From assembly GCA_951406725.2 (NCBI GenBank), contig OX597820.1, forward strand, positions 68,138,001 to 68,202,000: a stretch of 64,000 nucleotides of DNA, read 5' to 3'. Source of the DNA: Octopus vulgaris (lineage: Eukaryota). Below the pieces are notes generated by a model. It was given only the letters and a program-made list of their open reading frames with translations, was not told the origin of the DNA and did not search any database. The translations under genes and the position numbers were made by a program. Shown here piece by piece: positions 31,560-58,261 of this stretch. Positions within the stretch are counted from its first letter, which is position 1; each line of letters starts with the position of its first letter.

Positions 31560-31650
<91 letters not shown>

Positions 31651-31841
31651 TAAGTAATTAAGGGTTTAGCAACGAATTGCCTCACCAAAACACCGAATTT
31701 AGAAATAGCAGTCAAAGAGATATAGCTATTCCTTCTACTAAAAGGGGGATCTCAGTAAAAACACAGCACTTGAAAGGCAAACACAGACAGGTAAGAAAGA
31801 AAGAATGAAATGACGGCAATCTATCATACAATTTTAAGTTA

Positions 31842-31933
31842 CCTACGGACGTACGTTTCGAGATCAAGTTTTAGGAGAGCATAAGAATTAGAAAATTCTA
31901 CTTTACCCAAACTTCTTCTCTCATCGGCGCAGG
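31842..31933 (-). ncRNA. Type I hammerhead ribozyme (P1 copy 1)
   Basis: Reverse complement of 33132-33223. Confidence 0.8.
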
Positions 31934-32429
31934 ATACTACAATTATGAATAATTGTATATTAAATTTTGAGATACTAGAAGGCATCATCTCAACTCAGTG
32001 TCAGAGCGAGCCAAAGCATGACCAGTACCACGAACTTCAAAGTTTGAATGAAAGTTTGTGTCACCAGCCCCTTCCACCCGCGTGTAGCGAAGACAAAATG
32101 CTGCGGTCATTTACTGGGATAAAATATGGTTATCAGTAATAATAAAGGGTGAAATTAATTAATTTGGAATAATTATCAATTACACCAAGTAGATTTCGGC
32201 ATGTAAAAGCCCCATTCGAGGAAAATTTAAGTAATACTAAGTAATTAAGGGTTTAGCAACGAATTGCCTCACCAACACACCGAATTTAGAAATAGCAGTC
32301 AAAGAGATATAGCTATTCCTTCTACTAAAAAGGGGGATCTCAGTAAAAACACAGCACTTGAAAGGCAAACACAGACAGGTAAGAAAGAAAGAATGAAATG
32401 ACGGCAATCTATCATACAATTTTAAGTTA

Positions 32430-32521
32430 CCTACGGACGTACGTTTCGAGATCAAGTTTTAGGAGAGCATAAGAATTAGAAAATTCTACTTTACCCAAAC
32501 TTCTTCTCTCATCGGCGCAGG
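32430..32521 (-). ncRNA. Type I hammerhead ribozyme (P1 copy 2)
   Basis: Reverse complement of 33132-33223. Confidence 0.8.
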
Positions 32522-33131
32522 ATACTACAATTATGAATAATTGTATATTAAATTTTGAGATACTAGAAGGCATCATCTCAACTCAGTGTCAGAGCGAGCC
32601 AAAGCATGACCAGTACCACGAAGTTCAAAGCGTAGGTAACTTAAAATTGTATGATAGATTGCCGTCATTTCATTCTTTCTTTCTTACCTGTCTGTGTTTG
32701 CCTTTCAAGTGCTGTGTTTTTACTGAGATCCCCCTTTTAGTAGAAGGAATAGCTATATCTCTTTGACTGCTATTTCTAAATTCGGTGTGTTGGTGAGGCA
32801 ATTCGTTGCTAAACCCTTAATTACTTAGTATTACTTAAATTTTCCTCGAATGGGGCTTTTACATGCCGAAATCTACTTGGTGTAATTGATAATTATTCCA
32901 AATTAATTAATTTCACCCTTTATTATTACTGATAACCATATTTTATCCCAGTAAATGACCGCAGCATTTTGTCTTCGCTACACGCGGGTGGAAGGGGCTG
33001 GTGACACAAACTTTCATTCAAACTTTGAATTTCGTGGTACTGGTCATGCTTTGGCTCGCTCTGACACTGAGTTGAGATGATGCCTTCTAGTATCTCAAAA
33101 TTTAATATACAATTATTCATAATTGTAGTAT

Positions 33132-33223
33132 CCTGCGCCGATGAGAGAAGAAGTTTGGGTAAAGTAGAATTTTCTAATTCTTATGCTCTCCTAAAACTTG
33201 ATCTCGAAACGTACGTCCGTAGG
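33132..33223 (+). ncRNA. Type I hammerhead ribozyme (P1 copy 3), predicted cleavage after C33217
   Basis: Stem I ccugcg(33132-37)/cguagg(33218-23); core CCGAUGA(33138-44); stem II gaga(33145-48)/ucuc(33202-05) extended by aaguuu/aaacuu and agaau/auucu; GAAA(33206-09); palindromic stem III ACGUACGU; GUC(33215-17). Confidence 0.85.
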
Positions 33224-33513
33224 TAACTTAAAATTGTATGATAGATTGCCGTCATTTCATTCTTTCTTTCTTACCTGTCTGTGTTTGCCTTTCAAGTGCT
33301 GTGTTTTTACTGAGATCCCCCTTTTAGTAGAAGGAATAGCTATATCTCTTTGACTGCTATTTCTAAATTCGGTGTGTTGGTGAGGCAATTCGTTGCTAAA
33401 CCCTTAATTACTTAGTATTACTTAAATTTTCCTCGAATGGGGCTTTTACATGCCGAAATCTACTTGGTGTAATTGATAATTATTCCAAATTAATTAATTT
33501 CACCCTTTATTAT

Positions 33514-33576
<63 letters not shown>

Positions 33577-33927
33577 CATACAATACACACATATATGCGT
33601 ACGCACCCACATATATGATGAACGATCAATGACAAGATAAAGATATAAGACGGACAATTTGAAACAAATATACATACGTGTGTATGTATGTATATATGTG
33701 TATACTTGTGCCGACAAAAAACTGAAAAGATCAGTGCTTTAGGAAACATATATCAAGTTGCAGAATCTTGGGAACCGAACCAGAAACTATGTAGCTGTAA
33801 AAATCGCTTCTTAAGATCACGCCTATACATGCACCGGTAGACACTTTGTGCCACAGCACTGAAAACAATGTAAATATTATTGAGAGTCGAATGAAAATAT
33901 CTCAATTGGAATAGCGAGTGTGTTTAA

Positions 33928-34133
33928 GTAGCAGAATCGTTACCGCACCGGGCAAAAATTTTTAACGACATTTCGTCTGCCGTTATGTTCTGAGTTCATT
34001 TTCGCCGATGTCGACTTTGCCTTTCATTCATTCGGAGTCGATAAAATGAGTACCAGCTTAACATTGTGGTCATTGAGGTCGATTTAACCCTTACCTTGAA
34101 ATTGCTGGCCTTGTGTCAAAATTTGAAATCAAT
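33928..34133 (+). mobile_element. SINE family A monomer, decayed
   Basis: gcagaatcgttaccgcaccgggcaaaa...gtcgactttgcctttcattc. Confidence 0.75.
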
Positions 34134-41280: not shown

Positions 41281-42235
41281 GGCGGCGAGCTGGCAGAATC
41301 GTTAGCACGCCGGGCGAAATGCTAAGCCGTATTTCGGCTTTCTGAGTTCAAATTCGCTGAGGCCGACTTTGCCTTTCAACCTTTTGGGGTCGATAAATTA
41401 AGTACCTGTTGCGTACTGGGGTCGATCTGATTGACTGGCACCCTCCCCAGAAAGTTCGGACCTTGTGCCTAGAGTAAAAAAGATTATGTGTATATTGATG
41501 TAAATATGGTAAGGCGGCGAGCTGGCAGAATCGTTAGCACGCCTGGCGAAATGCTTATCAGTATGTCCGGTTATGAGTTCAAATTTTGCCGAGGCCGTCT
41601 TTGCCTTTCATCCTTTCGAGATCGATAAATTAAGTGCCAGTTGAGTACTGGGGTCGATGTAATCGACTGACTCCCTCCCCGAAAATATCGGGCTTTGTGC
41701 CTAGAGTAGAAAAGATTTGTGTAAATATAGTACTGCTTTACTAGGTCAACACCATATCTATCCAAAACCATAACATTTTTTTCGTGAAAAGGGTTATCCA
41801 AAGCCTATATAAATGCTTCTCGTCTACATTTGGTCATGGTTTATCGAAACCTTTAGTGATCCGAAGTTTTAATGGCGCAATAGTGAGCACGCCTGGCTTC
41901 ACTTTCTGAGTTCAAATCTCGTTGAGGTCGACTTTGCTTTTCATTCTTTCGGTTTCGACAAAATAAGTACCAGTTAAGTGTTGCAGTCAATGTAATCGAC
42001 TATCCTCCTATCCCAAATTTCAGGCCTTGTGCCCATAGTAGAAAGGACTGGCAGAATCGTTAGCATGCCGGACGAAATGCTTAGCGGTAACGGCTGTTCA
42101 ACATAGCACCACAAGTTAACAATACTCGTACATTAGACGAGTGCATACAGACCGGTTTCCCTGGACATAAGAACGTACGAAATGCCGCGATGCATTTTGT
42201 CCTGTGTGCTAACGATTCTGCGAACTCGCTGCCTT
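41281..42235 (+). mobile_element. Cluster of SINE family A copies (41281-41485, 41512-41716, ~41895-42089 on +; isolated head at 42181-42235 on -)
   Basis: Repeated ggcggcgagctggcagaatcgttagcacgcc heads and gcctttca...gtcgataaattaagt cores. Confidence 0.85.
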
Positions 42236-57564: not shown

Positions 57565-57982
57565 GGCAGCGAGCTGGCAGAAACATTAGCACGCCGGGCG
57601 AAATGCTTTGCGGTATTTCGTCTGTCTTACGTTCTGGGTTCAAATTCCGCCGAGGTCGACTTTGCCTTTCATCCTTTCGGGGTCGATAAATTAAGTACCA
57701 GTTACGCACTGGGGTCGATGTAATCGACTTAATACCTATGTCTGTCCTTTTTTGTACTCTCTGTGTTTAGCCCCTTGTGGGTAATAAAGAAATAGGTATT
57801 TCGTGTGTCTTTACGTTCTGGGTTCAAATTCCGCCGAGGTCGACTTTGCCTTTCATCCTTTCGGGGTTGATTAAATAAGTACCATTTACGCACTGGGGTT
57901 GATGTAATCGACTTAATCCGTTTGTCTGTCCTTGTTTGTCCTCTCTGTGGGTAGCCCCTTGTGGGTAGTAAAGAAATAGGTA
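57565..57982 (+). mobile_element. SINE family A with two internal tandem units
   Basis: Closely matches 980-1390. Confidence 0.88.
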
Positions 57983-58261
57983 TATATGTATGTTTATGGG
58001 CGTTTTGATATACATGTATGCATGCATACATACATATACATAGTTATGTGAAACGTCAAAAACGTACTTCCTCTTCCGTTTATCAAATCAAGCTAGATAG
58101 TTGAAAAACATCTAAACAGATTTTATTTCGAAACCTCATTTTATTTAGGTAAAATTGATTCAGGTGTGCTTGGTCTAATTTTTAGGGCCCAAAGAAGTCG
58201 GTTGGACAGCAAATGGAGGTAATTGCCATTCATAGAATTCCCTATATAATAGATGAATATT

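Follow-up and report, generated by a model that had tools for sequence, protein, structure and literature searches.

A head-to-head insertion of a retrozyme-like repeat in Octopus vulgaris and a family-wide step of 5' ends at its predicted hammerhead cut

Can an insertion in genomic DNA preserve the footprint of a self-cleaving RNA? The question is raised by two oppositely oriented arms of a 587-nt repeat found in the 64,000-nucleotide stretch of Octopus vulgaris DNA (contig OX597820.1, positions 68,138,001 to 68,202,000) that we analyzed, hereafter the window, to which all coordinates below refer. The repeat encodes a type I hammerhead (33132..33223, plus strand), with fold and covariation placing its predicted cut at 33217/33218. 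The first-pass annotation had placed the start of the right arm exactly at the ribozyme cleavage site, and this stands: its first base is the one that follows GTC, at an offset of exactly 587 from 33217/33218. A single such junction is weak evidence when taken alone; the value lies in the pattern across the population of insertions.

The insertion and its family

The insertion is flanked by (TA)n microsatellites, which carry no strand (31560..31649 on the left; 33517..33580 on the right). We number the unit such that +1 is the first base 3' of the predicted cut, which falls between GUC and C. The left arm (31647..32630, minus strand; 984 nt) is the unit in reverse complement, running through positions 393-587, 1-587 and 1-201 with 99.6% identity to the unit multimer (4 differences). 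The right arm (32631..33515, plus strand; 885 nt) comprises a whole 587-nt unit from the predicted cut followed by positions 1-298, and is 100% identical to the head-to-tail unit. The two meet in a blunt junction (32630..32631) joining unit 393 of the left arm to +1 of the right; in the alignment neither arm can be extended across it, and microhomology and filler are both absent. The predicted cut is itself crossed three times at the locus, once by the right arm and twice by the left, whose alignment places the traversed hammerhead copies on the minus strand at 31842..31933 (predicted cut 31848/31847) and 32430..32521 (predicted cut 32436/32435). Both arms carry C346, a variant found in 2 of 144 sampled insertions. 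The two left-arm passes deviate at unit position 400 (window 32623 and ~32035), with different bases, at a site that is otherwise near-invariant across the family (233/236). Fold-back of a single cDNA was ruled out for this locus, neither arm being contained in the other; it is a possible origin of short co-terminal pairs. Elsewhere, the window holds copies of an abundant SINE-like repeat (1027-1481, 41281-41723, 57612-57983 and ~33925-34100), some of them as 184-nt or 232-nt tandem dimers.

The family is large: in the animal's own 2.8-Gb genome, one 24-mer taken from the unit occurs 2,260 times without mismatch, and there are more than a thousand young insertions. Its unit, 587 nt at the locus and 584-596 nt in relatives, forms head-to-tail arrays that reach ten or more copies (e.g., G000:C9:34225250-34231344) with one type I hammerhead per unit; it is non-coding, the longest stop-free stretch being 52 aa on the plus and 84 aa on the minus strand, and GC is ~0.37 around the element. 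Our verdict is that it constitutes a large non-LTR retrozyme-like family, presumably mobilized by a Penelope-like element. As described for metazoan non-LTR retrozymes (PMC7229834; 10.64898/2026.07.22.740005), it is built of AT-rich units without coding capacity, repeated head to tail and each bearing a single type I hammerhead, with thousands of dispersed copies. It differs from them in its 587-nt unit, against the typical though not strict 150-450 nt given there, and in its 62-nt helix II extension and a U4C core in about half of the sampled copies. Circular intermediates and Penelope-like mobilizers have been proposed for metazoan retrozymes (Cervera and de la Pena 2020, PMC7229834; 10.64898/2026.07.22.740005), and a retrozyme–Penelope link is argued by Li et al. 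2026 (10.64898/2026.07.22.740005); in the text of these two reports available to us, we found neither two-site head-to-head insertions nor a 5'-end step.

The arms obey a simple rule at their 3' ends, which abut the microsatellite and occupy one of two sites, unit 201/210 (site A) or unit 293-311 (site B), ~97 nt apart. By these classes, defined across insertions, the left arm of the locus ends at the putative priming site A (unit 201; 31647, minus strand) and the right arm at site B (unit 298; 33515, plus strand). We collected 106 head-to-head pairs and dropped 8 that were cut by locus ends; the remaining 98 comprise 66 A+B, 1 A+A and no B+B pairs (66 of 67 classifiable), together with 31 in which an end lies outside the two classes, some of these probably being split alignments. 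In 13 of 112 pairs the two arms have rare variants in common (17 variants shared, as against 103 in a single arm). The use of one arm per site, together with these shared variants, suggests two primers acting on one RNA or on sibling RNAs, and the paired arms are likely to result from twin priming by a Penelope-like protein. The top-hit sample of the family was biased by the phase of the query, and served for architecture only.

Several other insertions echo the build of the locus. An independent one with other flanks and 93% identity (L201, G000:C13:30701980-30705033) is nearly identical in its architecture, its 984- and 888-nt arms beginning at unit 392 and -3; in three more (L078, L191 and L192) an arm near +1 is likewise joined to an arm at 339-393. 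At two loci (L112 and L206) one arm stops at the predicted junction and its partner crosses it, as seen here. The two arms co-terminate within 30 nt in 7 of 24 unselected pairs; we rejected such co-termination as proof of a free RNA end, as it is common at all positions.

The hammerhead and the step in 5' ends

In the hammerhead at 33132-33223, helix I has 6 bp, helix II has 4 bp and a 62-nt stem-loop extension, GAAA is present, helix III has 2 bp with a palindromic loop, and the core carries U4C. The constrained hammerhead fold has -20.5 kcal/mol, against a minimum of -24.4 kcal/mol, and an Rfam search at gathering and E-value thresholds did not detect it. We accept the type I fold because of covariation across 205 distinct copies: pair 6 of helix I is C-G in 148 and U-A in 53, 130 copies have A-U and 72 have G-C at pair 3 of helix II, and the unpaired N7 position is variable. 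Judged by these compensatory pairs, the three helices and their type I topology are real. The core CUGANGA...GAAA...UH is canonical in 104 of the 205 copies and has U4C in 100, the locus copy included. A U4C hammerhead of a viroid is described by Perreault 2011 as weak in vitro yet sufficient in vivo (PMC3088659). Going by its predicted fold, the octopus ribozyme may cleave after GUC. In one insertion (L106), both arms share an identical 8-nt loss in helix III, i.e., a ribozyme-dead template was still mobilized; five (L105, L106, L409, L427 and L440) are read-through copies that lack 4-15 nt directly before +1.

If cleavage left a trace in the DNA, it should be sought in the family as a whole. 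A histogram of 5' ends, the check proposed in the first-pass annotation, shows that they are not uniform and that they step exactly at the predicted cut. Ends were picked in the animal's own genome by patterns requiring a match downstream and a mismatch upstream; an initial pattern was replaced, being swamped by an insertion-bearing sister subfamily (572 matches). Set A comprised 81 matches: 68 distinct contexts scored by script, 10 left unfetched whose printed match indicates read-through, 2 segmental duplicates that were collapsed, and 1 palindromic arm re-added by hand; 10 were scored as read-through, and two arms of one insertion, which carry a substitution, were repositioned in the counts. 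It yields 17 ends in -17..-1 (1.0 per position) against 42 in +1..+9 (4.7 per position), with 7 at +1, 6 at +2, 5 at +3 and none at -1. Set B, of 78 matches (73 scored, 4 of them read-through; 5 unfetched and taken as read-through; two ends moved by hand), has 36 ends in +10..+20 (3.3 per position) and 13 in +21..+31 (1.2 per position). The contrast of +1..+5 with -5..-1 is 23:3 (P = 4e-5), and a Poisson change point falls at +1 with a relative weight of 0.96.

A looser anchor gave set C, which overlaps set A and of which all 80 matches were scored: 44 ends, 26 read-throughs and 10 with an absent or weak downstream element. Here 11 of the 44 ends lie at +1, none at -1 and 33 over -11..-1 (P = 8e-4); the upstream background is ~2.7 ends per position, with three apparent read-throughs discounted on inspection, and the 6-7 ends found at -3 make the cliff less sharp in this set. 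Overall, exactly +1 is enriched 4-7 fold over the positions just upstream, and ~75-85% of the exact +1 ends exceed background. The first-pass figure of 1 in 587 for a chance hit was thus the wrong measure, overstated about a hundredfold: two arms offer two chances, and the measured enrichment is the 4-7 fold just given. Based on 1,228 anchor passes and an assumed filter pass rate of 0.69, excess stops in +1..+20 amount to ~6% of passes, with ~1% at +1 itself.

The step persists at microsatellite-free junctions (14 ends in +1..+5 as against 10-11 over the 17 positions upstream) and within each of the three subfamilies (8 vs 5 upstream; 6 vs 6; 9 vs 5), and base composition cannot explain it because +1..+5 is as GC-rich as -5..-1. 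It is equally strong in the canonical- and U4C-core subfamilies, a comparison that does not favor cleavage: that the young subfamily with the weakening U4C core retains the step in full is not what a cleavage model would predict, and counts against it. The profile as a whole is a saw-tooth, abrupt on its upstream side at the predicted cut and tailing off over ~20 nt downstream, a shape that would fit a free or awkward RNA end trimmed before joining. Public contigs of guessed type, in which RNA ends and circles would not be visible, reveal no starts or ends of the unit, and we gave them no weight.

A control window at unit 322-340 has ~25 ends over 19 positions, or ~1.3 per position (33 matches, counted by eye and without a denominator). 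A second, broad pile-up lies at unit 372-395 (window 33002-33025), with 54 ends over 24 positions, ~2.2 per position (counted by eye and without a denominator, for 100 of 101 matches listed); it has no ribozyme to explain it, the left arm of the locus starts within it, and it may mark either a region of transcription start or a structural stop. Some junctions contain fillers composed of short segments beginning at +3..+5, with as many as four in succession (L026:1440-1510; L045:1645-1665; L117, L188 and L211), which suggests repeated re-priming close to the cut. Deletions whose end falls exactly at +1, considered as a sign of trimmed and re-ligated circles, occur in 5 insertions, which is not clearly above neighboring positions.

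Possible explanations of the step at +1

We advance, with moderate confidence, a Penelope-like double priming on the element RNA in which the predicted cut or re-joining site acts as a partial stop for reverse transcription. Briefly, tandem copies would be transcribed and, going by fold and covariation, the hammerhead would cut after GUC; the monomers may then be held by helix I as nicked circles, or be ligated into circles. A putative Penelope-like endonuclease/reverse transcriptase would cut (TA)n, and the two DNA ends would prime one each at unit 201/210 and 293-311, as the one-each rule shows. Both cDNAs would extend 5'-ward and usually cross the junction; in ~6% of passes they end at +1 or fall short of it by as much as ~20 nt, perhaps on account of a free 5' end or of an awkward linkage, with subsequent trimming. 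The cDNA ends would finally be joined head to head, or one of them to the flanking (TA)n. Probably, though not certainly, the junction at 32630/32631 is one such cut-site stop.

A narrower version of this proposal, which we put forward tentatively, is rolling-circle twin priming: a dimeric Penelope-like protein would act on a self-cleaved and re-closed 587-nt circle, making one cDNA per fixed site with strand displacement and dropping off at the cleavage/ligation scar once per 15-20 passes. In Flores 2009, unusual linkages at hammerhead ligation sites are described as able to block reverse transcription or cause a jump, and a prominent stop is noted as absent for one viroid (PMC3185496); circular templates have been proposed at the stage of hypothesis (PMC7229834, PMC4209133). 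If true, the rolling-circle reading would be direct genomic evidence for hammerhead-processed circles as the template of an animal retrozyme, would explain Penelope-type inverted repeats, and would mean that even a U4C ribozyme cuts in vivo.

Among the alternatives, the best surviving, which we nevertheless think unlikely, is that the reverse transcriptase stalls on a folded, uncut hammerhead, the pile-up then being a structural footprint on uncleaved multimers. The geometry allows it, as helix I spans +1..+6 and the core starts at -1, such that the predicted cut is also the end of helix I; likewise, the step is no weaker with the U4C core, many ends lie at +6..+8 (the base of helix I), over 90% of passes cross the site precisely, the other broad hot spot at 372-395 falls in a predicted helix, and unprocessed RNA is the dominant in vitro substrate in the account of Frangieh 2024 (PMC11167929). 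Yet a stall should peak 3' of the helix and then fade, whereas +1/+2 exceed -1/-2 by 13:1 (P = 9e-4); the longer helix II arm just upstream has the lowest density of ends; and 9 of the 13 ends at +6 adjoin microsatellite, their position being blurred by microhomology.

For the single junction at the locus, background truncation may have landed on +1 by chance, a reading that overlaps the others and that we regard as distinctly unlikely. With 1.0-2.7 background ends per position against 7-11 at +1, about 1 in 5 ends at +1 would arise in this way, and the similarly built L201 insertion (392 and -3) misses +1 by 3 nt; on the other side, +1 is the most used of all positions in -11..+1 (set C).

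The first-pass annotation had proposed that reverse transcription ran to the 5' end of a self-cleaved RNA. The genome-wide step at +1 upholds this in part, but the event is a minority one (~6% of passes); at the locus itself, the blunt start at +1 agrees with a run-off, but the partner arm crosses the cut. Taken literally, copying of the right arm would have ended at the free 5' end of a linear cleaved RNA that retained one uncut ribozyme, and the left arm would stem from another, longer RNA bound by the same protein dimer, a scenario that we consider very doubtful. Beyond the blunt start, ends in +1..+20 are mostly first-pass (65/83 vs ~65% at risk, P = 0.011), short fillers start at +3..+5 at several junctions, and Frangieh 2024 predicts that the Penelope protein forms a dimer (PMC11167929). 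Against it, the one-arm-per-site rule and shared variants (C346 here) speak for a single RNA or for sibling RNAs; were both arms copied from one linear RNA, the left would have reached 195 nt past the point where the right arm stopped. Simple run-off from one cut RNA is thus insufficient because the partner arm crosses the same site: run-off at this locus needs a second RNA molecule, or else a template that is circular or nicked. Loci at which one arm stops and the other crosses are better fitted by a circle, nicked or intact, that has a partial stop.

Finally, an assembly or fold-back sequencing artefact is next to negligible in probability, in line with the earlier view that a random assembly chimera is unlikely: none of the public contigs listed bridges the junction, which is uninformative, but the arms differ at 4 sites as well as in length and phase, a single rule is obeyed by 98 other uncut head-to-head insertions elsewhere, and such inversions are described for Penelope-like elements (PMC8557442).

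Related systems, a candidate mobilizer and the wider bearing

In L1 twin priming, two target ends prime on one RNA to yield a head-to-head inversion, with the arms copying different parts of that RNA; in contrast, the arms of the 587-nt repeat overlap and each can exceed one unit. The resemblance to EN+ Penelope-like elements is closer, as these are described with partial tandems, inverted 5'-truncated partners, microsatellite targets and tails (PMC8557442), and with a hammerhead upstream of the start sites (PMC8557442, PMC11167929). The Penelope element of Frangieh 2024 likewise has two internal starts of reverse transcription, with both strands extended (PMC11167929). Unlike Penelope-like elements, the repeat has no ORF, and its starts lie ~97 nt apart as against a 30-40 nt tail. 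In the account of Frangieh 2024 there was no difference between strands, no RNA-seq ends at the cut, and cleavage was dispensable in vitro (PMC11167929), whereas here the paired arms use one site each and genomic ends pile up at the cut. The HDV-like ribozyme of R2 offers a further parallel, its cut site being mirrored at the 5' junctions in the genome, where variability was ascribed to microhomology (Eickbush et al. 2013, PMC3774820); it differs in the class of ribozyme and of element, and in that the R2 cut defines the full-length 5' end, whereas here it is a partial stop that is mostly crossed.

As to the mobilizer, the same genome contains a young autonomous Penelope-like family of ~4.8 kb (L371-L387) that inserts in (TA)n. 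Of its 20 loci we retrieved 17; they carry an intact reverse transcriptase plus GIY-YIG frame of 781 aa (771 aa in one), and the family has two 3' ends in (TA)n, ~43 nt apart. It is a candidate only: the best alignment of the unit to 17 of its copies scores 34, against a shuffled maximum of 49, and is not significant, and among 30 GIY-YIG loci in the genome we found no linked match to the unit. In this autonomous family, a further ORF may be present in an A-rich stretch of ~1.3 kb upstream, and a degenerate hammerhead-like motif is seen by eye ~90 nt before the 3' end. Hammerhead-like motifs with unrelated stems also occur near GIY-YIG loci (L292/L372, L284/L389, L285, L288, L379 and L381), suggesting further retrozyme-like families in this genome.

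The role of the hammerhead in Penelope-like elements and retrozymes is stated as unclear in a report on the former (PMC8557442). We found no report of a 5'-end step at a hammerhead cut for either group in the main texts of the open-access literature; Fig. S2 of Frangieh 2024 may bear on the point. The octopus family provides a natural read-out, combining a step of 5' ends at the exact nucleotide of the predicted cut with a rule of one arm per priming site, and both patterns give sharp predictions for reconstitution.
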